Source: an uncultured Bacilli bacterium (GTDB lineage Bacteria; Bacillota_I; Bacilli_A; RF39; UBA660). Taken from it: DNA of 64,000 nucleotides. Made by a program: the position numbers and the translations under genes. A model generated the notes under the pieces. It ran no database searches. It was given only the letters and a program-made list of their open reading frames with translations, and was not told the DNA's origin. Positions 6,300 to 64,000 of this stretch are shown here, in pieces; the stretch's first letter is position 1, and each line of letters begins with the position of its first letter. The stretch is taken from NCBI GenBank assembly GCA_910579535.1, contig CAJTUR010000001.1, positions 26,587 to 90,586 on the forward strand, written 5' to 3'.

Positions 6300-7301
6300 T
6301 TATTTACCTCTTTTCTTATTTTCCTTTTTATCTTTACTTTTTACTGGTTTAATTAAATTGGATTTTTTCTCATTTATTTTTTTAAAGATAAAATTTTGAA
6401 GAACAACAAACCCATTGGTAACCACCCAATATAGAGCTATTGCTGTAGGTAAACTAAATGACGCAATGGAAATCATAACAATCATAAAGATTAAAGTAAA
6501 TCGCATCTGACTTTCTATTGCGCTGTTGACGCTTTGATTTTTCATTGAATTTTTAAATGAAAAATAAGTTGTTCCTACTATCAAGATAATTAATAGTATA
6601 TAAACGTATTTTCCTTGACTAATTCCTACCCAAGGTGTCATGCCTAGTTTCATACCCAGTAAACTGTCTTCAAAAATAGCTGGAACACGATTAATAGCTT
6701 GAAGAAAGGCAAAGAATAGGGGTAATTGAATAAAAGCAAGTAAACATCCAGATACAGGATTGATTTTATATTTTTTATAGATCAACATGGTTTCTTGACT
6801 TTTCATCATCATGGCATCTGAGTCTGTACGTCCCATATATTTCTTTTCAATTTTTTGAATTTCAGGAGCAGCTTTTTTCATATTCTCTGATTGATCCATT
6901 GTTTTTTTAGAAAATGGTAAAAGAATTAATCGAATACCCATTCCTATTAACATAACAGAAATACCAAAGTTTTTTATTAATATTCCTAATTTTAAGATGA
7001 TATACGCTAAGGGTTTTACAAATAGAGATTCCCATAAACTTTTGTATTTTATATCACTAGGTTTAAATGCTTCACAGGAAGGAAGGTCTTCAAGTTTTAT
7101 TGTTAACTGATCATTGTATTTTTCATAGACTTCATAAAGTTTTTGTTCTCTTGGTTTACAAAGAATATTATTTTGAAGACTTTGACCTGTTTCTTCAAAA
7201 GTAACAATATTCTTATCCTCTTTTAAGTAAGTTTTATTTCCACAGCCTGTTGTTAATAATAAAATACTGATTGTTAATACCGCTATTTTTTTTATTTTCA
7301 T
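6300..7301 (-). CDS. yidC: Membrane protein insertase YidC/OxaA/SpoIIIJ (lipoprotein type)
   Basis: 333 aa; lipobox LLTTGC; multi-pass hydrophobic core; conserved position between rnpA and jag. Confidence 0.85.
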   Translation of the reverse strand: MKIKKIAVLTISILLLTTGCGNKTYLKEDKNIVTFEETGQSLQNNILCKPREQKLYEVYEKYNDQLTIKLEDLPSCEAFKPSDIKYKSLWESLFVKPLAYIILKLGILIKNFGISVMLIGMGIRLILLPFSKKTMDQSENMKKAAPEIQKIEKKYMGRTDSDAMMMKSQETMLIYKKYKINPVSGCLLAFIQLPLFFAFLQAINRVPAIFEDSLLGMKLGMTPWVGISQGKYVYILLIILIVGTTYFSFKNSMKNQSVNSAIESQMRFTLIFMIVMISIASFSLPTAIALYWVVTNGFVVLQNFIFKKINEKKSNLIKPVKSKDKKENKKRGK

Positions 7302-7609
7302 TTTATCTCCTCTATTAATTGTATTAGATTGATTTTCATTTCTTGAAAATTAATTTCTAAACAATTTCTTTTTATCATTATAATATAATCTCTTCCTTTT
7401 GGAAAGGTTTCTTTTATATTATCAATTAAAGCTCTTACTTGTCTTTTTAATTTATTTCTGACTACTGCGTTACCTACTTTTTTACTAATCGCCAGGCCAA
7501 ATTTTATTTCACTGTCTTTTCTTTTCCTTATATATATAGTGTAGTAATTATTTTTAAAAAATCGGGCGTTATTTATGATAGAATTAAAGTCTTTTTTTTC
7601 TTTGACCAT
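7298..7609 (-). CDS. rnpA: RNase P protein component RnpA (start at internal ATG 7609; the longest ORF begins at 7663)
   Basis: Contains the FGLAISKKVGNAVVRNKLKRQVR RnpA signature; an N-terminal length comparable to B. subtilis RnpA favours the internal start. Confidence 0.8.
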   Translation of the reverse strand: MVKEKKDFNSIINNARFFKNNYYTIYIRKRKDSEIKFGLAISKKVGNAVVRNKLKRQVRALIDNIKETFPKGRDYIIMIKRNCLEINFQEMKINLIQLIEEIK

Positions 7610-7673
7610 TTCATATTTTTTTATAAAAATTCCTTCTTTCTTGATAGAAGCAAAAAAAACCACATATTGTGGC

Positions 7674-7799
7674 TTATTTGGTAATTAAATTTTTACGACC
7701 TTTTTTTCTTCTATTTTTTAATATTTTTGTTTCTTTACGAGCAAAAAAGCCATGTTTCTTTGCTTTTCTTCTTTTATTTGGTGTATAAGTACTAAACAT
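7674..7799 (-). CDS. rpmH: 50S ribosomal protein L34
   Basis: 41-aa ORF, MFSTYTPNKRRKAKKHGFFARKETKILKNRRKKGRKNLITK; below the ORF-track size cutoff; classical rpmH-rnpA arrangement. Confidence 0.85.
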   Translation of the reverse strand: MFSTYTPNKRRKAKKHGFFARKETKILKNRRKKGRKNLITK

Positions 7800-8464
7800 T
7801 TTTCTTCCTCCTTTAAATTTAAAAGCTTCCTTATTATAATATTAATATTTAAAAAAAGTCAAGAATTATTCTTTTCTTTCTAAATAGTTCTGATTTGTTT
7901 ATAAAATAAATTAGCAAACTTTTTTTAAAAAAGCTAGTTTTAATTGAGGGAAAAATTGTGTTTAAAATTGTTTTATAACAATAATGATTTATTTGATTCC
8001 ATTTAAGAAAAAGTGTTAAAAAATGAAGAAGTCTATGAAAAAATTAATTTATGAATATTAACTTATCAGAAGAAATTGATAAATTAAACCATTTTTTGTA
8101 TGATCAGAAAAAGAAAATTGAGGAATTTTATTGCAAATCATTTAGAGGGTGTGCTAATTATACTTGGAAAGTACTTTGTATACTGCAACAAATGAAAATG
8201 AAATTTTAGAGATTATACAAAATAAAACTGCTGCTTCTTATCACTATTTTTCTTTTTTGTTGATTTTGATATTAAACCTTTTCTTGACCAACAGCATTCC
8301 CTTAATAAAATTGTTAAGCCTTAATCTAACTATAGAAGAGAGTCCCTCTCTTTTTTTTATTTAAGTTATTAACCTCTACTTGTTTTTATTTTCTTTTTTT
8401 ACAATATAAATTTAAGAATTGTTTATTTTTTGTTAATAACTTTACTTGTTTTTTATACTTATAA

Positions 8465-8615
8465 ATCACTTTATTCACATTATTAACATCTCTGTTGATA
8501 ATTGTTATGCACATTGTTGATAAAAATTGTCGTATTTTTGTTAATAATGTTGATAAATGTCGTAAACTTAGTTAAAATAAGGTCAAATTATTGTTTATAA
8601 CTTGTTAATAAGTTG
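8465..8615. promoter_or_regulatory. oriC DnaA-box cluster upstream of dnaA
   Basis: At least seven 9-mers within 1 mismatch of TTATCCACA/TGTGGATAA: TTATTCACA at 8471, TGTTGATAA three times, TGTTAATAA twice, TGTTTATAA; in an AT-rich untranslated 0.9-kb rpmH-dnaA spacer. Confidence 0.6.
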
Positions 8616-8709
8616 TGTCTAATTGTTTTAATCTTTTCATTTAAATCAAATTGAGCTACAATGAAATTGGTTAGATGGTACAGAATGCGGGGTGAGGATT
8701 TTGGACGTC

Positions 8710-11425: not shown

Positions 11426-11872
11426 ATGGAAAATTATAAAATTAATGATAAAACGATGGCTTTGTATTCTTTAAATGCAAAAACAAGAGTATATGAAGAA
11501 GAAAAGTGTTTTGAGGTTGAGGAAACGGCGAATCATATTATGGAAAATAGCTGTTCTTATTATGGGAGTAGTTTAGAAGGAAGAAAAAAAGGGTCTACTT
11601 CTTTAATTGGAGCAAAGTATAAAGTTCCAGTTATAGTGGAAGAAAGTAAAAATATTATCTTTTTTCCTACAGACTCATCTAAAAAGAAAAATTGTACGTG
11701 GATTCGGTTTAATAAAATAGATACGTATTATTATCATCAAGGACGATTGGTTCTTTGTTTTAAAAATGGAGATAAATTAGTATTGGATCATTCTTTACCT
11801 GTTATTGAAAATCAAATTTTACGTTCTACTCGATTAGAAGCACTTATAAGAGAAAGAAAAAATGGTGAATAA
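11426..11872 (+). CDS. ComK-family protein (competence transcription factor family)
   Basis: SCSYYGSSLEGRKKGSTSL and KVPVIVEESKNIIFFPTDSSKKKNCTWI align with B. subtilis ComK SCRFFGSSYAGRKAGTYEV and KPPIMVDPSNQIFLFPTLSSTRPQCGWI; it sits in the dnaN-recF slot. Confidence 0.7.
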   Translation: MENYKINDKTMALYSLNAKTRVYEEEKCFEVEETANHIMENSCSYYGSSLEGRKKGSTSLIGAKYKVPVIVEESKNIIFFPTDSSKKKNCTWIRFNKIDTYYYHQGRLVLCFKNGDKLVLDHSLPVIENQILRSTRLEALIRERKNGE

Positions 11873-11980: not shown

Positions 11981-13075
11981 ATGCAAATTCAAGAATTAAA
12001 ATTGCTTAATTTCCGTAATTACGATCGAGTTCAGGTTTCTTTTGATTCGCATTTAAATATTATTTATGGAAAAAATGGGAGTGGAAAAACCAATTTAGTA
12101 GAATCTATTTATTTTCTAGCTTTAACTAGATCGTTTAAACAATCTAATGATAGAGTTTTGATTCGAAGTCATACCAATTTAACTAAAGTAGAGGGGGTTA
12201 TCTATAATCAATATCAAACTACTTATAAAGTCATTTTATCCGATGAGGGCAAGACTGTAAAAATTGACAATAATAAAATTTCTAAAATTAGTGATTATAT
12301 ATCAAAAATTAATGTTGTTTTGTTTAGTCCAAATGATTTAAAAATGATTAAGGATACACCAAGTGTACGACGTAAATATTTAAATATTTTGGTTTCACAA
12401 TTAGATGTTTCTTATTTAAAAGAGTTAAATCAGTATAATAAATTACTTAAGGTGAGGAATGCTTATTTAAAAAAAATGTATTTAAATGGAAATGCACTTA
12501 TGATTTACTTAGATGTTGTTACTGAAAAACTAGTAGAAGTTGGATTAAGTATTTATGAGATACGAAAGAAATGTCTTTTTGAAATTAATTCTTTTATTGG
12601 GGAAATCTATAAAGATATAGCCTTAAATGATGAATTAAAAGTAAAGTATGTTAGTGATTATGAAAATAAAACAAGAGAGGAAATTCTTGATTATTATAAG
12701 AAAACTAAGAGTAAAGATATTAGTTTTGGTAAAACCAATTTTGGTATTCATCATGATGATTTTCTTTTTCTTTTAAACGATTATGATATAAAGGATTATG
12801 GAAGTCAAGGACAACAAAAAAATGCTGTAATCGCTTGGAAATTTAGTGAAATGATGCTGTTTAAACAATTAAAATCGATTTTGCCTATTTTGATTTTAGA
12901 TGATTTATTAAGTGAGTTAGATAAGGAAAAGATTAAAAATATTCTTTCGTTTATTGATGATAAAATTCAGACTTTTATTACTACTACTGAGATTGAAAAA
13001 ATAGAATCTTTACTTATAGATAAAACCTATAAAAAAATAAATGTGTCAAATGGACAACTGGAGGAGGTATTATAA
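11981..13075 (+). CDS. recF: DNA replication and repair protein RecF
   Basis: Walker [13 protein letters not shown]-like signature; conserved position. Confidence 0.95.
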
Positions 13076-14997
13076 TGAAAGAAAATGAAGTGCATTATAA
13101 TGATGATGATATTCAAGTTCTAGAAGGGTTAGAAGCTGTACGTAAAAGACCAGGCATGTATATAGGAACCACAAGTGAAAAAGGATTGCATCATTTAGTT
13201 TGGGAAATAGTTGATAATGCGATAGATGAAGCTCTTGCGGGGTATTGTGATGATATTGAAGTTGTTATTGGTAAAGGAAATACGATTACTGTTAAAGATG
13301 ATGGTAGAGGTATGCCTACAGGAATTAACAAAAAGACAGGGTTATCAACAGTAGAAACTATTTTTACAGTGCTGCACGCTGGTGGTAAGTTTGGTGGTGG
13401 TGGCTACAAAGTAAGTGGAGGATTACATGGTGTTGGAGCGAGTGTTGTTAATGCATTATCTTCTTGGCTTGAAGTTACCGTTTATCATGATGGGAAAATT
13501 TTTTATCAAAAGTATCAAGATGGTGGAAAGCCTGTTGAACCTTTAAAAGAAATTGGTGTGTGCGAAGAAAATCGTACTGGTACAACTGTAACATTCAAAG
13601 CAGATCCAGAAATTTTTACGGAGACAACTATTTATAATTATGATGTTCTTGCTAAACGATTACAAGAATTGGCTTTTTTAAATAAAGGGATAAGAATTAT
13701 TCTTTTTGATGAAAGAGAAGAAGAGAAACATCATGAATTTTTATATAATGGGGGAATTATAGAATATGTCCAGATGCTTAATAAGAATAAAGACCCCATT
13801 CATAAAGACGTCATTTATTTTGAAGGAACAGAAGATGGAATAGAACTTGAAGTGGCCATGCAATATAACGATTCTTATAATGCCAGTGTTTATAGCTTTA
13901 CAAATAATATTAATACATATGAAGGTGGAACTCACGAAGATGGTGTAAAAAGAGCTTTAACTCGTATTATTAACAATTATGCTAAAAATAATAAAATTTT
14001 AAAAGAAAATGATGAAGCATTAACAGGAGAGGATGTAAGAGAAGGTTTAACAATGATTATTTCTTGTAAACATCCTGATCCTCAATTTGAAGGACAAACA
14101 AAGACAAAACTAGGAAATGCTGAAGTTCGTAAGATTGCTGATGATGTATTTAGTGAGGGCTTTGAACGATTCTTAATGGAAAATCCTAACGAGGCACGAC
14201 TTATTGTGGATAAAGCTTCTACAGCTGCTAGAGCAAGATTAGCAGCGAAAAAGGCTAGAGAGTTTACAAGGAGAAAAAGTGGTTTAGATACGTTTAACAC
14301 ACTTGGTAAACTTACAGATTGTACGAGTAAAGATGCGAGTGTGTCAGAAATATTTATTGTCGAAGGAAATAGTGCAGGTGGTAATGCGAAAGATGCACGT
14401 ATTCCTAAAACTCAAGCGATTCTTCCATTAAGAGGAAAGATACTCAATGTAGAGAAAGCAAGACTAGATCGAGCTCTTTCTAATGAAGAAATACGAACGA
14501 TGATTACCGCTTTTGGTACGGGTATTGGGGATGATTTTGATATTAGTAAACTTCGTTATCATAAAATTATTATTATGACTGATGCCGATGTTGACGGATC
14601 ACATATTCAAATCTTGTTATTAACATTATTCTATCGTTTTTTTAGACCCATTGTGGAACAAGGGTATGTTTATGTTGCTAATCCTCCATTATTTAAGGTT
14701 ACTTATGGAAAGAATATTAAGTATGTTCTTACGGAAGAGGAATTAAATGAATATCGAGCTACGTTGCCAGTAAACTCTAAGCCAATGATTAATCGTTTTA
14801 AAGGACTTGGAGAAATGGATGCTGTGGATTTAAGAGAAACGACTATGCATAGCGATAATCGTATTCTAAGAAAAGTTACCGTGGAGGATGCAATGGCAGC
14901 CGATAAGATTATTACCGATTTTATGGGTGATGAAGTTTTTCCAAGAAAAATGTTTATTGAAGAGCATGGCCATGAATATACGGATTTAGATGTTTAG
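13075..14997 (+). CDS. gyrB: DNA gyrase subunit B
   Basis: 640 aa; GHKL ATPase, [21 protein letters not shown] motifs. Confidence 0.97.
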
Positions 14998-15010: not shown

Positions 15011-17476
15011 ATGGAAAAAATAATTGATAGTAGTATAATTAAAGAGTTTACAGAGTCTTTTGGACGTTATTCGATGAGTGTTATAATTGCTCGTGCTATT
15101 CCGGATTTAAGGGATGGTTTAAAACCTGTTCATCGCCGTATTTTATATTCCATGTATGAATCAAATTATACGCCTGATAAGCCACATAAGAAGTGTGCAA
15201 GAATTGTTGGTGATGTTATGGGTAAATATCATCCTCATGGCGATTCTTCTATTTATGAGGCATTAGTTGGCATGGCACAGGATTTTACGTTCCGACATAT
15301 GTTAGTGGATGGACATGGTAATTTTGGTAATATGGATGGTGATGATGCCGCAGCTATGCGTTATACTGAAGCAAGACTTTCTAAGATTGCTTTAGAAATG
15401 GTTCGAGATTTGAATAAAGAAACGGTTAATTTGGTGCCGAATTTTGATGAAACGGAAGAAGAACCTACGATTTTACCAAGTCGTTTCCCTAATATTTTAG
15501 TGAATGGAACGATGGGTATTGCTGTTGGAATGGCTACTAATATTCCGCCACATAATTTAGGGGAAGTTATTGATGGCTGTGTTGCTTATATTGATAATCA
15601 TGATATTGATACAATGGGACTTATGAACTTTATTAAAGGTCCTGACTTTCCAACAGGAGCTTCTATTTTAGGAAATAGTGGTATCCGAAAAGCTTATGAA
15701 ACAGGAAAAGGTACTATTACTATACGAGGTACGGCAAGTATTGAAGATGTTAACGGAAAGACTCGTATTGTGGTTACAGAGTTACCTTATAAGGTAAATA
15801 AAGCGGAGTTTCAAACGAGAATTGGAGAATTAGTTCGTGATAAAATAATTGATGGAATTAGTGAACTTCATGAGGAATCGAATCTAGAGAACCCTGTTCG
15901 CGTGGTAATTTATTTGAAAAAAGATGCCAACGCTAATGTTATTCTTAATAATTTGTATAAGTATACACAATTACAAACAACGTATGGTATTAATTTATTA
16001 ATGATCGATCAAAATAGTCCTAAGGTCTTGCCTTTAAAGGATATAATTGTAAAATATATTGATTATCAAAAGGAGATAATTATTAGAAGAACGCAATTTG
16101 ATTTAAAGAAGGCTTTGGATCGCGTTCATATTTTAGAGGGTTTAAAGATTGCGCTTGATCATTTAGATGAAGTAATTAAGACGATTCGAGAATCTAAAAC
16201 CGATGTGGTTGCAAAAGAGCAATTAATGTCTAAGTTTGGATTAGATGAAATTCAGGCTAATGCGATTTTAGAAATGAAATTACGTCGTTTAACAGGTCTA
16301 GAACGTGAGAAAATTGAAAATGAATATGCTGAATTAATGAAACTTATTGATGAGTTACGTGCGATTTTAGCGAGTGAAGAAAAAGTACTTGCTGTAATAC
16401 GTGAAGAATTATTGGAAATTAAAGAAAAGTATGCGGATGAACGTCGTACGAATATTGATATGTCAGCGATTGAGTTTATTGAAGATGAGTCCTTGATTCC
16501 TGAGGAAGATATAATTATAGCACTTACTCACAATGGTTATATTAAGCGTACTACAAGTGATACATTTAAACTACAAAATCGTGGTGGAGTAGGTGTTAAA
16601 GGGATGAATACTCACGAAGAAGATTTTGTTGAACATATTGTCAGCTTATGCACTCATGATTATATTTTATTCTTTACAAATAAGGGTAAGGTTTATCGTT
16701 TAAAAGGGTATGAAATACCTGAATTTAGTAGACAATCTAAAGGGTTACCAGTTATTAACTTGCTTCAAATCGAAAAAGATGAAAAGATAAATTCAATATT
16801 AAGTATTGAAAGAGAAGATCAAGCTAAATATTTACTATTTGCGACTAAACAAGGAATTGTTAAACGTACTGCTATTGCTGAGTTTGATAATATTCGTAAC
16901 AATGGTAAGATTTGCATTAGTTTAAGAGAAACAGATGAACTTATTTCAGTACAAAAAACTACTGGAGAAGATTCTATTTTGCTTGGTTCTAGTGATGGGC
17001 GAATGGTTAAATTTATCGAAGATGAAGTACGTGTTATGGGAAGAACCGCTAGTGGTGTTCGTGGTATTACTTTAAATGGTAGTGAATGTATTGGTGCTGA
17101 AAAAGCAATGGAAAATGATTCATTAATTATTGTTACTAAAAAAGGTTATGGAAAACAAACCAATATTTGTGATTATAGACAAACTAAACGCGGAAGTAAG
17201 GGTGTTAAAGCCTTAAATGTTACAGAAAAGAACGGAGATTTAGCTGCATTTAAACTTGCTAAAGAAAATCACGATTTAGTCATTGTTACAAATACAGGCA
17301 TGATTATTAGAGTACCTTTAGATCAAATCAATGTTTTAGGTCGTGTTACTCAAGGTGTTCGACTTATAAACCTTAAGGATAATCAAGAAGTATCTAATAT
17401 TAGCTTAGTTGAAAAGAATAACGAAGAAAATATTGAAACTTCAGAAAACGAAGCAAGTGGTAATGCCAAAGAATAG
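15011..17476 (+). CDS. gyrA: DNA gyrase subunit A
   Basis: 821 aa; active-site AAMRYTE tyrosine, QRDR HPHGDSS. Confidence 0.97.
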
Positions 17477-17498
17477 AGATGTTTCACGTGAAACATCT
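17477..17498. repeat. Perfect 22-bp palindrome AGATGTTTCACGTGAAACATCT plus T-run (copy 1); also acts as the gyrA terminator
   Basis: Self-complementary sequence with a central CACGTG, followed by T8. Confidence 0.8.
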
Positions 17499-17693
17499 TT
17501 TTTTTAATTTAAAATGTTTTATAAATAATGTGAGTTTGATTAAGTCTTTTTTATATTTTTTAAATAACCTATTTATAGAAATAGTATGTAGTTATATCTT
17601 CTATATTTTATAAGTTGAATAAATATTTTTTTGAAATTGATGCAAGGTATGATAAATCTGTTAGTTAACTATTATTGAATTGAAGGTGTTTAA

Positions 17694-18023
17694 ATGTATA
17701 AAGAAATATGGGACAGTTTAATTAGAAAATATGGCGAAGATTTTTATTGGGGATGGTGGAATAGTGAAATGTATATGGAAGAACTTAATAACGAATTATG
17801 TGAGAAACATCCCTTGTACAATAATATAGAATGTTTTGTAGGAAAGTCTTTTGCAGATGACGATGCTTTATATTTAACGAAAAATGGGCATGCTGTAATT
17901 GTTCATTTGGGATGGCCAAACAAAAAAAAGATGTGTCTGGAATTTTCCTACTTATACAGAATTTCCAAATTTAGAAAGTGCAATACTGCACATAGAAAAA
18001 GAATTTGTAAAATTGAAAAATAA
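17694..18023 (+). CDS. Hypothetical small protein (109 aa) bracketed by palindrome copies 1 and 2
   Basis: Intact ORF, Trp/Tyr-rich, no recognisable family; accessory-looking. Confidence 0.4.
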   Translation: MYKEIWDSLIRKYGEDFYWGWWNSEMYMEELNNELCEKHPLYNNIECFVGKSFADDDALYLTKNGHAVIVHLGWPNKKKMCLEFSYLYRISKFRKCNTAHRKRICKIEK

Positions 18024-18027
18024 AAAA

Positions 18028-18051
18028 TAGATGTTTCACGTGAAACATCTA
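18028..18051. repeat. Perfect 24-bp palindrome TAGATGTTTCACGTGAAACATCTA (copy 2)
   Basis: Identical core to copy 1, 552 bp downstream. Confidence 0.8.
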
Positions 18052-18074
18052 TTTATAATGCTTATGATTGCCTT

Positions 18075-18540
18075 TAACATCGTATCCAACTATTTTCAAC
18101 TTTAATATCAATTTCACAAGACACGAATAGATAGTCATTATACTTTAATTCTTCTTCACATATAAATTCTAATTGAAAAATTACTGGATTATCGAAAAAG
18201 TTACATTTTACGTAATACTCATCATTTTCATTTGATACCTTTTCTAATATTTTAATTGGTACTTTTTCTAAATATTAACTATTAGTCTTTTGTATATTCG
18301 TTATAATCTGATTCTGTGCATTTTTCTAAGTATTTTTCTAAAAAATATATGATGTTAGTATTTAATATTTCATCTTTATCAAATTTGTCTTTACTGTTTC
18401 TGTGTACAAATGAAGCATTGAATTGTTTTCCATTAAATTCAAAAATTGTATCTGATTATCCTGTTATATCATCTTTAGCATAATACTTTATAAATTTTAT
18501 TTTATTATAATATTGATAATGGTTATTGATTTTAAATCTC
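18075..18540 (-). pseudogene. Decayed gene of unknown function (frameshifted with internal stops)
   Basis: Minus-strand translation gives protein-like segments (KFIKYYAKDDITG, stop, SDTIFEFNGKQFNASFVHRNSKDKFDKDEILNTNIIYFLEKYLEKCTESDYNEYTKD, then a frame switch, then YLEKVPIKILEKVSNENDEYYVKCNFFDNPVIFQLEFICEEELKYNDYLFVSCEIDIKVENSWIRC) interrupted by stops and one frameshift; no intact ORF over 60 aa. Confidence 0.4.
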
Positions 18541-18596
18541 TCCTTTTTTCATTGATGAAATACTAATTTAAATTCTATAATTTTAAATTATATTTC

Positions 18597-18616
18597 AATG
18601 TTTCACGTGAAACATT
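18597..18616. repeat. Perfect 20-bp palindrome AATGTTTCACGTGAAACATT (copy 3), immediately upstream of the SRP RNA
   Basis: Same 18-bp core ATGTTTCACGTGAAACAT, 568 bp after copy 2. Confidence 0.8.
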
Positions 18617-18644
18617 TGCTATTTTTTTATATTATTGATATTAT

Positions 18645-18722
18645 TTGTTTGTGCAACGAATATATTGTAAACTGGTCAGGATCGGAAGATAGCAGCCACG
18701 TCAGTCCCTATTCGTGTGCACT
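18645..18722 (+). ncRNA. ffs: Small (4.5S-type) signal recognition particle RNA
   Basis: GGTCAGGATCGGAAGATAGCAGCCACG matches the universally conserved SRP RNA domain IV (E. coli GGUCAGGUCCGGAAGGAAGCAGCCAAGG); closing helix TGTGCAACGAATA/TATTCGTGTGCAC; followed by T8; lies upstream of tadA-dnaX as scr does in Bacillus. Confidence 0.6.
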
Positions 18723-18741
18723 TTTTTTTATAGGTGATTTT

Positions 18742-19161
18742 ATGAATGATTTAGATATTGTAGATACATTATTAAATTTAGCCAGAAAAGCTTCATTAAA
18801 AGGCGAAATTCCAGTTTCGGCAATTATAATATGTAATGATAAGATAATATCTAAAAAATTTAATTTGAAAGAAAAGAAAAAAGATAGTATGGCCCACGCT
18901 GAAATCCTAGCTATAAAAGAAGCTACTAAAAAATTAAAACGTTGGAATTTAAATGATTGTAGTCTTTATGTTACATTAAAACCGTGTGCTATGTGTGAAG
19001 AAGTGATTAAACAAAGTCGAATTAAAACCGTTTATTATCTGTTAGATAAGTTGGATTATAAGCATGATTTTACTGGTACGTCTTTTGAAAAAATGAATTT
19101 GAAAGAGTACAAAGATAGTTATCAACAATTATTGTCAGCTTTTTTTAAAAATATGCGATAG
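18742..19161 (+). CDS. tadA: tRNA-specific adenosine deaminase TadA (start at internal ATG 18742; the track ORF from 18598 reads through the SRP RNA)
   Basis: HAEILAI and PCAMC zinc-binding CDA motifs; RBS AGGTGA 5 nt upstream of 18742. Confidence 0.85.
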   Translation: MNDLDIVDTLLNLARKASLKGEIPVSAIIICNDKIISKKFNLKEKKKDSMAHAEILAIKEATKKLKRWNLNDCSLYVTLKPCAMCEEVIKQSRIKTVYYLLDKLDYKHDFTGTSFEKMNLKEYKDSYQQLLSAFFKNMR

Positions 19162-24368: not shown

Positions 24369-24920
24369 TTGAAATTAATTGTTGGTTTAGGAAATCCAGG
24401 AAAAGAATATGAAAATACTAGACATAATGTGGGATTTATGGTAATAGATTCTTTTTTTGGTGAGAATGATTTTCAAAAAAAATTTGATGGTTTAGTAAAA
24501 ATAGTCTCGATAGGAAAAGAAAAAGTTTTAGTGTTGAAACCACAGACTTTTATGAATTTGTCGGGAAATTCCATCATTAAAGCTGTTAAATATTATGATA
24601 TTGCTTTAGATGATTTATTGGTTATTCAAGATGATATGGATTTGGATTTTGGAACGTTTAAAATTAAGAAGAATAGTTCTTCTGGAGGACATAATGGGAT
24701 TAAATCGATTATTGGTGCTTTAGGTAGTGAAAGTTTTGCGAGGTTAAAGATAGGTATTTCACATGATATTCATCACGATACCATCCATTATGTTTTAGGA
24801 AAGTTTTCTAAAAGTGAATTGCAACTATTAGAAAAAAATATGGTAGAGCTTCATAAAATAATAGAAACGTTTATTAATAAATCTGTTGATGCTGCCATGC
24901 AACTGGCGAATTCTAGGTGA
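24369..24920 (+). CDS. pth: Peptidyl-tRNA hydrolase (TTG start giving MKLIVGLGNPG; the track starts at 24360)
   Basis: LIVGLGNPG and HNGIKS motifs. Confidence 0.9.
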   Translation: MKLIVGLGNPGKEYENTRHNVGFMVIDSFFGENDFQKKFDGLVKIVSIGKEKVLVLKPQTFMNLSGNSIIKAVKYYDIALDDLLVIQDDMDLDFGTFKIKKNSSSGGHNGIKSIIGALGSESFARLKIGISHDIHHDTIHYVLGKFSKSELQLLEKNMVELHKIIETFINKSVDAAMQLANSR

Positions 24921-28759: not shown

Positions 28760-28972
28760 TAAGATACCTTTAATTAACGAAGAAGGAAAGAGTACTGTTT
28801 TGGACTTTTGTAGAGAATTTGCGTTTGGTGAAAGCAAATAAAGAAAAAAGTAGGAAGATGGGTCTGGAGTTAAATCGATTAATTCTCGTTACGAAGGAAA
28901 GTGCGTGTTAAAATCACGAATTAAGGTGGTACCACGGGTAAATTGCTCGTCCTTAATTTGTGATTTTTTTTG
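28760..28972 (+). promoter_or_regulatory. T-box riboswitch leader (antiterminator/terminator)
   Basis: Canonical T-box sequence AATTAAGGTGGTACCACGG at 28919-28937; mutually exclusive terminator AAATCACGAATTAAGG / CCTTAATTTGTGATTTT followed by T8; AGAGA-like element in stem I; RBS GGGAG then ATG 28984. Confidence 0.75.
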
Positions 28973-28983
28973 TTTAAAGGGAG

Positions 28984-30091
28984 ATGAAAGTTATGAATTT
29001 AAGTGAAATTAATCAAAGAATCAGTGATAGAAGCGATTGTTTTTATTGGCAAACTGATAGAAAAATAAGTGCTCAAGAAGCATCTATGATATGGAAAGAT
29101 AGACATTCAGCTATAATTAATGAAGAATTATTAGATAAAGTCAATTTAGAATTAAAGGGTGATCGAGTCATTTCAATTGATTTTGATGAAAAGATTCAGA
29201 TGAGTTCCAGCAATGTTAATTCAATAAGAGTTGGAGTTTTAGAAAGTGGAAAAGAAGTCATTATAAGGTGCCATCCTAAAGGAGTTAAAAATGGGTATTT
29301 TTATGTTGAAAGTTTAGCTTCTCAAATTGCATTAGAAAATGGACTTCCTTCATATAAAACTTATTGTATTCATGAATTAGAAAATGAGAATGATATTTCT
29401 TATCAAGTTATAGAGAAGTTAAGTGGAGATACCGTTCAATTTTGTTTAAAAGAACACCCTGAAAAAGAAGAACGACTTGTTATGGAAATGGGTAAAACAA
29501 TGGCAAGACTTCATAAAATAAAAATTAATGGATTTGGTCCTTTTGATAATGAACAAGCTAAAAATGGTAAACTTGTAGGAAAATATGAATCATTAAAATG
29601 CTGGATTAGAAGAAAATCTTGAAAGATTAGTAAAATATAATATTTTAAGTAAAGATATGGCTGATAAAATGAAAGCATTATTTGATGATAATGAATTACT
29701 TAATTCAGATGTATCAGTTTTAATTCATAATGATTTTGCTGATTGGAATTTGTTAACTGATGGTAATTCAATTACAGGTATTATAGATTGGGATGAATGT
29801 GTTGCCGGAAATCCTATAGAGGAAATCGCTTGTTGGTCAACATTTTTTGAACCAGAAAGAATAAAACCATTTTTAAAAGGTTATTTTAGTGACATTCCAA
29901 TATATGACCATTTTGATGAGATGTTTCAATTAATGAGATTAAGGTATACTATTTCAAAAATGGCATTAAGAATTAAAAGATATACTTATGAACAAACACC
30001 TTTTTTAGAAAGTATGATTGAAAAAGGTAAAAAGCATTTGGATGAGTTAATAGAAATATTTCAATTAAATGATTGTAATAAAAAAATATAA
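28984..30091 (+). pseudogene. Phosphotransferase-family (APH/choline-kinase fold) gene split by a frameshift near 29597-29620
   Basis: ORFs 28984-29622 and 29657-30091 are N- and C-halves of one kinase-fold protein (Brenner motif IHNDFADWN, IDWDE). The downstream reading frame is already open from 29597 and reads ..AGLEENLERLVKYNILSKDMADKM.., so a 1-nt indel in a short A-run joins the two halves. Confidence 0.6.
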
Positions 30092-61879: not shown

Positions 61880-64000
61880 TTTCTTTAAAGAAAGAGAAGA
61901 ATATCAAAGATATATAATTAATTATTTGGTTAATAACAATGGATATAAAGAAAGAAAGTTTTCTGAAGGAAAATATAATCCGTTATATGCAATGGATACT
62001 GAATTGCTTCTTCAGTTTTTAGAGACTACTCAATCTGATACAATTGCATATTTGAGAGATTTATATCCAAATGCTGATGAATTAATTATTAAAAAGATTA
62101 ATGAAAGTATTACTAGGAGAGATAGCAGTTTAATTAGCAAATTAAAAAATGGTATATATTTTGATAACACTACACATTTAGATTTAATGTATGATAAACC
62201 AGCAACTTCTATAAATGAAGATTTGATGGAAAAATATAATAGTAATATTTTTTCCATTATGGAAGAAGTTTATCATAAAGATGGAGAAAGAATAGATTTA
62301 GTAATATTTTTAAATGGTATTGCGATTATCACTATTGAATTAAAGAGTAATCAGTCTGGTCAAAATTATGAAGATGCTATTGAACAATATAAAAATGATA
62401 GAGATTATACTACGAGACTATTATCATTTAAAATTGGTGCATTAGTTAATTTTGCAGTGGATACTAAAGAAGCATATATGTGTACTGAATTAAAAGGTAG
62501 GTCATCTTTCTTTTTGCCATTTAATAAAGGAACAGAAGATGGTGGGAAAGGCAATCCACATAATGATAATGGATTAAATGTTTCTTATATGTGGGAAGAT
62601 ATATTAACTAAAGATACTTTATTATATTTAATTAAAAACTTTATATTTGTAGAAAAAGAGGAGAAAGAAGATCCTAATACTGGAAAATTAAAAATAAAAG
62701 AAAGTTTAATTTTTCCTAGATATCATCAATTAGATGCAATAAGAAATTTACTTTCTGACTTTAAAATTAATAGGACTAGAAAAAATTATTTAATTGAGCA
62801 TAGTGCGGGTTCTGGAAAAACTAAAACTATTGCTTGGTTAGCCTACAGATTACAGTGCTTGCATGATGTAAATGAAAAAAATATATTTGATTCTGTACTA
62901 ATTATTACAGATAGAATAGTTGTTGACCAACAACTCCAAGATGCAATTAAATCTTTAGACCATGATCCAAGTTTAATAAAAGTGATGGACGAAGATTGTA
63001 GTTCTGCAGATTTAGGTGATGCTATAAAAAATGGTTATAAAATAATTGTTTCAACTATTCAAAAGTTTAGATACATATTAGATGAAACTAAAAACATTAC
63101 AGATAAAAGTTTTGCAATAATTATTGATGAAGCACACTCATCTACTTCTGGAAAGAATATGTCTGCTGTTACTACTGTTTTATCCGATGAAACAGAAGAA
63201 GACTTAGATTCTATTGAAGATCAAATGGTAGAAGAAATTAGTAAAAGTGGAAAGCAAAATAATATATCAATGATAGCATTTACCGCAACTCCTAAAAAAC
63301 AAACTCTTCAATTATTTGGAACTCCAAATGAAGATGGTAAGACAGCCCCGTTTCATGTATATGGAATGAAGCAGGCTATACAAGAAGAATTTATATTAGA
63401 TGTACTAACTAATTACACAACTTATAAAACTTTCTATGAAGTAACTAAAAAAATTGAAGATAATCCAGAAGTATTTAAAAGTTTTGTAAAAAAGAAACTT
63501 AATCGTATTGTTGATTTAGATCCACATAATATAGGTCAAAAAGTTGAAATAATTATAGAGCATTTTAGAGATTGTATTATGAGAGAACTTGGTGGAAAAG
63601 CTAAAGCAATGGTGGTTACATCTTCTAGAGAAGCAGCAGTACGTTATAAATTAGCATTCGAAAGATACATTGTAGAACATAATTATACAGATATAAAAGC
63701 ATTGGTAGCATTTTCTGGAAAGGTTCCTGTGGATGGAATTGAATATTCTGAGGTTGGTATAAACAAAATACCAGAAAAAGATTTAAAAGCAGAATTTGAT
63801 AAAGATGATTATCAAGTTTTACTAGTTGCCAATAAATATCAAACAGGCTTTGATCAACCAAAATTAGTTGCAATGTATGTTGATAAAAAACTAAAAGGAA
63901 TAGCAGCTGTTCAAACACTATCTAGGTTAAATAGAATATGCCCTCCTTATGATAAAAAGACTTTTATATTAGATTTTAAAAATGATTATGTGGATATAAA
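61872..64000 (+). CDS. hsdR: Type I restriction enzyme R subunit, 3' end beyond the window
   Basis: ATG 61872 overlaps the hsdS stop (ATGGATAA). Open frame to the window end with N-terminal nuclease motif DLVIFLNGIAIITIELK, helicase motif I EHSAGSGKT, DEAH box IIDEAHSS, Q-tip region. Absent from the track because it has no stop. Confidence 0.85.
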   Translation, partial: MDNFFKEREEYQRYIINYLVNNNGYKERKFSEGKYNPLYAMDTELLLQFLETTQSDTIAYLRDLYPNADELIIKKINESITRRDSSLISKLKNGIYFDNTTHLDLMYDKPATSINEDLMEKYNSNIFSIMEEVYHKDGERIDLVIFLNGIAIITIELKSNQSGQNYEDAIEQYKNDRDYTTRLLSFKIGALVNFAVDTKEAYMCTELKGRSSFFLPFNKGTEDGGKGNPHNDNGLNVSYMWEDILTKDTLLYLIKNFIFVEKEEKEDPNTGKLKIKESLIFPRYHQLDAIRNLLSDFKINRTRKNYLIEHSAGSGKTKTIAWLAYRLQCLHDVNEKNIFDSVLIITDRIVVDQQLQDAIKSLDHDPSLIKVMDEDCSSADLGDAIKNGYKIIVSTIQKFRYILDETKNITDKSFAIIIDEAHSSTSGKNMSAVTTVLSDETEEDLDSIEDQMVEEISKSGKQNNISMIAFTATPKKQTLQLFGTPNEDGKTAPFHVYGMKQAIQEEFILDVLTNYTTYKTFYEVTKKIEDNPEVFKSFVKKKLNRIVDLDPHNIGQKVEIIIEHFRDCIMRELGGKAKAMVVTSSREAAVRYKLAFERYIVEHNYTDIKALVAFSGKVPVDGIEYSEVGINKIPEKDLKAEFDKDDYQVLLVANKYQTGFDQPKLVAMYVDKKLKGIAAVQTLSRLNRICPPYDKKTFILDFKNDYVDI

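Follow-up and report, generated by a model that had tools for sequence, protein, structure and literature searches.

Three palindromes between gyrA and ffs match the parS centromere in an uncultured gut Bacilli bacterium

Three identical palindromes lying between gyrA and ffs in the genome of an uncultured Bacilli bacterium were assigned, with high confidence, to chromosomal parS, the centromere-like loading site of ParB/Spo0J, and would form a small origin-proximal cluster in this interval. They are an ordinary, already known element and not a new repeat. The analysed stretch of DNA, hereafter the window, is 64 kb long. The exact 18-mer ATGTTTCACGTGAAACAT was present at 17479–17496, 18031–18048, and 18598–18615 and nowhere else in the window, even when up to three mismatches were allowed. 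By chance, 0.05 copies were expected in the window, and three copies were reached in no shuffle out of 100; the recurrence of one palindrome between gyrA and ffs, first pointed out in an earlier note on this DNA, is therefore real. A scan of the window with the 16-mer consensus returned the same three sites and left the other 63 kb empty. The palindromes were perfect, as the note had stated, and measured 22, 30, and 20 bp instead of 18–24 bp. Alignment of the copies and a repeat search indicated that they are alike over an 18–22-bp core only. A T-run had been described after every copy, and this was correct for copy 1, where T8 (17499–17506, plus strand) directly follows the 3′ side of the palindrome and the site lies 3 nt past the gyrA stop codon. 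At copy 2, located between the convergent ORF109 and a gene remnant, the T-rich tail was on the minus strand, and at copy 3 the T-run began 6 nt past the palindrome. The coordinates of these and other features are summarized in Table 1.

Table 1. Coordinates of the predicted parS sites and other features in the window, and in related loci where a locus name is given.
Feature	Position	Strand	Description
ParB-family (Noc-like) gene, 5′ two-thirds	1–1004	−	Directly after rsmG; runs off the window start; full product 606 aa (L121:10759–12579)
rnpA	7298–7663	−	
Replication-origin region	7664–8691		rnpA/rpmH–dnaA intergenic stretch; GC skew sign change
dnaA	8692–10092	+	
comK homologue	11426–11872		PF06338, E = 1e-36; between dnaN and recF
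gyrB	13075–14997		
gyrA	15011–17476	+	821-aa ORF; PF00521, PF03989; upstream boundary of the predicted centromere interval
Predicted parS site 1	17480–17495		Perfect 16-bp consensus TGTTTCACGTGAAACA within a 22-bp perfect palindrome (17477–17498)
Small ORF (ORF109, 109 aa)	17694–18023	+	Between parS 1 and parS 2; no Pfam family
Predicted parS site 2	18032–18047		Perfect 16-bp consensus within a 30-bp perfect palindrome (18025–18054)
Gene remnant	18055–18590	−	Between parS 2 and parS 3; stop codons and frameshifts in three-frame translation
Predicted parS site 3	18599–18614		Perfect 16-bp consensus within a 20-bp palindrome (18597–18616)
Putative ffs promoter	18616–18644		TTGCTA at 18616–18621, 17-nt spacer, TATTAT ending at 18644, with TG; site 3 abuts the −35
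ffs, small SRP RNA	18640–18737	+	RF00169 Bacteria_small_SRP, 54.8 bits vs gathering score 40; downstream boundary of the interval
tadA, then dnaX and ybaB	18743 (true start of tadA)		Downstream of ffs
T-box leader	28771–28957		113 bits; upstream of an ORF at 28984
Long open frame	~61900–64000		Leaves the right edge of the window
Tandem parS array	L136:12660–13117		12–13 predicted sites between gyrA and ffs
Perfect NBS	L133:17909; L134:18575; L135:1093, 18486; L136:15455, 18456; L138:919		

The core of the palindrome, TGTTTCACGTGAAACA, was an exact match to the published parS consensus TGTTNCACGTGAAACA, which has been tabulated for B. subtilis, C. glutamicum, Hyphomonas, and others (PMC7022226). 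As three exact TGTTTCACGTGAAACA matches, the sites fit the 16-bp palindromic pattern tGTTNCACGTGAAACa by which parS is recognized. Full-text matches to GTTTCACGTGAAAC in the literature, among the matches listed, mostly concerned ParB–parS or the paralog Noc. The 18-mer was also searched for more widely, in one genome per bacterial species, and at least 120 loci of up to 8 kb each were obtained. Among the matches listed, the exact 18-mer occurred in Alpha-, Beta-, and Gammaproteobacteria, Actinobacteria, Bacteroidota, Firmicutes, Spirochaetes, Chloroflexi, Acidobacteria, and Saccharibacteria; a ParB-family ORF lay within the locus in 46 of 120 cases, and several loci carried 2–4 copies in about 1 kb, such clusters being common. 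The identity of the sequence with the canonical parS centromere had been missed in the earlier note. Among its proposals, the operator of a regulator came nearest: ParB, which binds parS, is a helix-turn-helix protein, and parS is a centromere site.

The location of the cluster agreed with this assignment. GC skew turned from −0.15 (4–8 kb) to +0.18 (8–12 kb), with the flip at about 8 kb, and rpmH was located between rnpA and dnaA. The gene order was rsmG-mnmG-(GNAT)-mnmE-jag-yidC-rnpA-rpmH on the minus strand and dnaA, dnaN, comK, recF, gyrB, and gyrA on the plus strand, which is the standard firmicute origin arrangement. The three sites are 9–10 kb from dnaA and the skew switch, on the right replichore. 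The skew flip and the gene order therefore place the cluster inside the origin domain, where parS is expected. The cluster would in turn be a marker of the origin domain that depends on neither dnaA nor GC skew, and the gyrA–ffs interval could be annotated as the chromosome centromere of this uncultured gut lineage.

Two side observations were made in the origin region. The oriC stretch between rpmH and dnaA was polymorphic: it holds a 696-aa ORF with no Pfam family in other strains (L122–L124, 1702–3792), a 576-aa ORF in L131 (1590–3320), and only a 52-aa ORF in the window (7664–8691), and the adjoining 5′ part of dnaA showed 91% identity between strains vs 99.4% elsewhere. In addition, the comK homologue was kept between dnaN and recF in all relatives examined; in Bacillus, this position is that of yaaA/remB.

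Established knowledge of ParABS systems suggests how the sites would work. A ParB dimer would recognize each 16-bp palindrome in double-stranded DNA via its helix-turn-helix, and ParB with CTP would then close as a clamp and slide to the adjoining DNA. The resulting partition complex would recruit SMC condensin, and ParA where present, by which newly replicated origins would be organized and separated. ParB binding, spreading, and SMC loading are thus predicted for the three sites by analogy.

For comparison, 22 kb was taken around the gyrA of each of six relatives (L131–L136), whose GyrA homologues were 96, 91, 86, 85, 82, and 78% identical to that of the window. Synteny from mnmE to mfd was the same in all six. 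With up to two mismatches allowed, 28 of the 29 16-mer sites in L131–L136 fell within the gyrA–ffs interval, which makes up 3.5% of the DNA examined, and the copy numbers, from the closest relative to the most distant, were 3, 3, 2, 2, 5, and 13. Four sites each, directly after gyrA, were found in two more distant relatives (L012 and L099; GyrA 65–66%). Eight related uncultured gut Bacilli, with GyrA identities of 65–96%, thus carry 2–13 parS sites, conserved independently of their flanks. Six assemblies of the same species (L125–L130) were uninformative on conservation because they are at least 99.8% identical to the window.

The surroundings of the sites varied. Among L131–L136, the interval was about 200 to 1260 bp long, and it contained ORF110 and a pseudogene, a NUDIX gene (L134), or almost nothing (L133). 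The sequence around each 16-mer differed between species, and the inter-site spacing ranged from 40 to 1144 bp. The regular spacing of about 560 bp, emphasized in the earlier note, holds for the window (552 and 567 bp, start to start), but it was rejected as a feature since it is not conserved in the relatives. Substitutions within the 16-mer were confined to known permitted variants, TGTTCCACGTGAAACA and its mirror (TGTTCC..., ...GGAACA). In L136 (GyrA 78% identical), the sites formed a strict tandem array with a 40-bp period, in which the TGTTTC and TGTTCC variants alternate. The first parS was 3–33 nt past the gyrA stop codon in seven of nine loci (the window and six close relatives). The last parS adjoined the ffs promoter or lay within about 30 nt of it in all relatives with ffs in view, and in most of them it touched the −35 hexamer. 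This pattern represents the classic footprint of selection on a protein-binding site. A constant 16-mer amid changing flanks, spacing, and cargo cannot be reconciled with a mobile repeat, scars of insertion, or terminators that evolved independently; on the last point, the relatives bear out the earlier argument that identical long palindromes are not independent terminators.

We then considered which protein would read the sites. The closest solved relatives of the 606-aa ParB-family protein encoded at the start of the window were Noc (7NG0, E = 1e-50), and its best NCBIfam match was nucleoid_noc with 264 bits, under the cut-off of 315. It aligned as GVSQ..ADK..SERHAR vs GKSR..ANH..SMGHGR of Spo0J. 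At positions 173, 179, 184, and 201 (Caulobacter ParB numbering) it has Q, K, E, and R, which are of the Noc type, and Q-K-x-R was present in 120 of its 120 nearest homologues. The substitutions R173Q, T179K, A184K, and G201R switch ParB from parS to the Noc site (Jalal et al.). The 606-aa protein is therefore predicted to bind NBS, not the parS sites described here. Seven perfect NBS ATTTCCCGGGAAAT were found in the related loci L133–L136 and L138, where every CCCGGG was inside one; these would provide the Noc-like protein with its own target, distinct from the parS sites. The single NBS match in the window, at 24556 with two mismatches, was no better than chance.

When the ORFs of the window and of L121–L125 were searched with phmmer, only the Noc-like gene was detected. 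The 74 kb of this genome that were covered (the window and 10 kb further left) thus showed no second ParB-family ORF and no ParB with the parS-type residues R173 and G201, the sole ParB-family gene being of the Noc type (Q-K-E-R). Beside the Noc-like gene of two more distant relatives, rsmG and a convergent PBP were seen, and no parA or parB. The same genomes keep parS and NBS clearly apart, which argues for two separate binders. The upkeep of two distinct palindromes suggests that a canonical ParB is encoded elsewhere in the genome. If complete genomes were to lack it, parS would be read by the atypical 606-aa Noc-like protein, with its repeat-rich insert, or by another factor; in a milder version, parS would have been co-opted as both centromere and gyrA terminator, with ParB occupancy coupled to gyrA/ffs transcription. 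We consider this very unlikely, and a non-canonical reader of parS, if true, would contradict the published R173/G201 specificity rule.

A related explanation is that a local transcription factor for ffs, ORF109, or gyrA uses the palindromes as operators, or that the neighbouring Noc-like paralog itself binds them. The Q173, K179, and R201 of that paralog, residues of the kind that switch specificity from parS to NBS, speak against the latter, as do the perfect NBS of the relatives and the sharp separation of the two site types, which points to two binders. The position of site 3 against the ffs −35, repeated in most relatives, would fit an operator, and near the origin of this lineage the Noc-like protein was found but no other ParB-family member, canonical ParB included. 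On balance, this explanation appears very improbable.

Some further features of the Noc-like system were recorded. The 606-aa protein lacks an N-terminal amphipathic helix, as it starts with MNMDKNILEV only a few residues ahead of the ParB N domain. Its DNA-binding and C-terminal domains are separated by about 300 aa of inserted sequence containing about seven [DN][IV][SA][NQ]F.[IF][ND] repeats, and its homologues in the relatives are 300–356 aa long. Four of the seven perfect NBS are at the same place inside a 235-aa methyltransferase gene.

In addition to the predicted binding of ParB, the palindrome may also be used at the RNA level, because the parS sites are located in AT-rich intergenic DNA. 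In a terminator scan, site 1 was terminator-like on the plus strand, with 11 pairs, a 4-nt loop, and then T8, and its RNA hairpin had a folding energy of −13.7 kcal/mol (z = −4.5); this form fits the earlier suggestion that copy 1 is the gyrA terminator. For site 2, the scan gave a terminator-like structure on the minus strand (13 pairs, tail TTTATTTTTC), and the folding energies of this site were −14.2 kcal/mol on the minus strand and −14.7 kcal/mol on the plus strand. The hairpin of site 3 was weak (−6.5 kcal/mol) and was not terminator-like. A GC-containing hairpin with a U-tract, the form of an intrinsic terminator, was thus present at sites 1 (plus) and 2 (minus) but not at site 3. Site 1 is likely to be the intrinsic terminator of gyrA, and site 2 is likely to be a terminator for minus-strand transcription; these roles, and the promoter next to site 3, are predicted from consensus scans and folding. 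As site 3 is immediately upstream of the ffs −35, bound ParB could modestly influence ffs transcription.

Similar contexts were seen in other genomes. In a descriptive survey of the sites from the 18-mer scan, without a matched control, 40 of 48 sites in genomes with less than 36% GC were outside long open frames and 21 of 48 had a T-run on one side, whereas 79 of 97 sites in genomes with more than 50% GC were inside long open frames (among the matches listed in both cases). Terminator-like parS therefore looks like a general habit of AT-rich genomes and not a peculiarity of this locus. A literature search for parS acting as a terminator found no relevant precedent, and the RA3 plasmid paper makes no claim of parS as a terminator.

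The overlap raises the question of whether the palindromes are mere intrinsic terminators, with hairpins that are only incidentally identical, for example through gene conversion, and with no DNA-binding protein involved. Copies 1 (plus) and 2 (minus) do pass the scan, with about −14 kcal/mol beside T-runs, and six of the seven close loci (the window and six relatives) have a T-run behind the first site after gyrA, but the stem of copy 3 is weak and no T-run adjoins it. The 16-mer is invariant across the relatives while stem extensions and tails change, and 12–13 tandem copies at a 40-bp period, as in L136, make no sense for terminators. Moreover, the 16-mer is the universal parS, which co-occurs with parB in high-GC phyla, where most sites are in long open frames as noted above. 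The hairpin was found at no other gene end in the 64 kb. A generic terminator used throughout the genome, the outcome that the earlier note had set against its own proposal, was thus not what we observed, the motif being restricted to this locus in the window. We regard terminators without a binding protein as extremely unlikely.

Two ideas raised in the earlier note, a REP-like or miniature mobile element and scarring by repeated insertion at a gyrA–ffs hotspot, have next to no probability: the change of cargo between species (ORF109 and a pseudogene here, NUDIX in L134, almost nothing in L133) could suggest insertion activity, but the likeness between copies stops at the 18–22-bp core, no copies were found elsewhere in the 64 kb or in 130 kb of related DNA outside the interval, three copies in 1.1 kb are not the many dispersed copies, alike past a short core, of a REP or MITE, the identical sequence occurs in unrelated phyla, and eight related species carry the same 16-mer at this locus amid unrelated flanks.

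The remaining content of the interval was also inspected. The small ORF ahead of copy 2, the decayed gene between copies 2 and 3, and the SRP RNA next to copy 3 were all present as previously described, the last being identified by its Rfam match (Table 1). The remnant on the minus strand had no Pfam hit and no minus-strand ORF of 30 aa or more. Nor does the remnant correspond to the NUDIX gene of the L134 interval. ORF109 is frameshifted at an A8 run (~17921–17929) relative to the intact 110-aa ortholog (L132:12691–13023); its two frames combined matched this ORF110 in tblastn, and the conserved C-terminus FPTYTEF.NLESAILHIEKEF stands in the +1 frame (stretch 17694–18030). Since the shift is the same in all assemblies of the species, it does not stem from an error in one assembly but reflects either a true pseudogene or a site of slippage. 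ORF109 is variable cargo of the interval and not part of the centromere.

The palindrome also affects gene calling. The longest "tadA" ORF (18598–19161, 187 aa), which is the one in the public MAG annotation, begins at the ATG of parS site 3 and crosses ffs. TadA of the relatives is 135–140 aa long, and the true tadA start is therefore at 18743. Two further short ORFs starting with MFHVKH were artefacts of the ATG inside parS. ORFs called from this ATG (MFHVKH... peptides) should be regarded as spurious, as should the 187-aa "TadA" spanning ffs.

Apart from the assignment itself, three findings are modest leads rather than discoveries: parS copy number ranges from 2 to 13 between species, with a tandem array in one of them; parS overlaps a predicted terminator and promoter; and a Noc-like paralog but no canonical ParB was found in the origin region.

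Finally, we compared the cluster with known systems. In B. subtilis, Spo0J acts on parS with the consensus TGTTNCACGTGAAACA at 10 sites, 8 of which are in the origin domain. The sites described here share with it the identical 16-bp consensus, the origin-proximal position, and a firmicute host with a Noc paralog beside rsmG. Most parS sites of B. subtilis are inside genes and spread over several hundred kb, whereas all sites seen here are intergenic and packed in a 1.1-kb interval after gyrA. Unlike in B. subtilis, no soj-spo0J operon is next to noc here, the ParB gene not being found in the 74 kb.

Clustered parS sites are known from Corynebacterium glutamicum (10 sites), Streptomyces coelicolor (21), and Mycobacterium smegmatis (3) (Table 1 of PMC7022226). 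As in these arrays, near-identical parS sites are grouped near oriC in this clade, and their number varies (2–13). The gyrA–ffs position is, in contrast, specific to this clade, and the L136 array, strictly tandem with a 40-bp period, resembles plasmid centromeres.

Streptococcus pneumoniae has four origin-proximal parS sites and no ParA, and ParB spreading affects the neighbouring com genes (PMC4488948). The present bacterium, likewise a low-GC firmicute, also has few sites, close to the origin, and no parA was seen near the origin; the position of site 3 at the putative ffs promoter raises the possibility of a side effect on neighbouring transcription. The pneumococcal consensus AGTTTCACGTGAAACT differs in its outer bases. 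The NBS of Noc shares the palindromic architecture of parS, and its binder is likewise a ParB-family CTPase; both a Noc-like gene in the window and perfect NBS in the relatives recall that system. However, positions 1 and 6 of each half-site are A and C in NBS, whereas they are G and A in the sites described here, as in parS.
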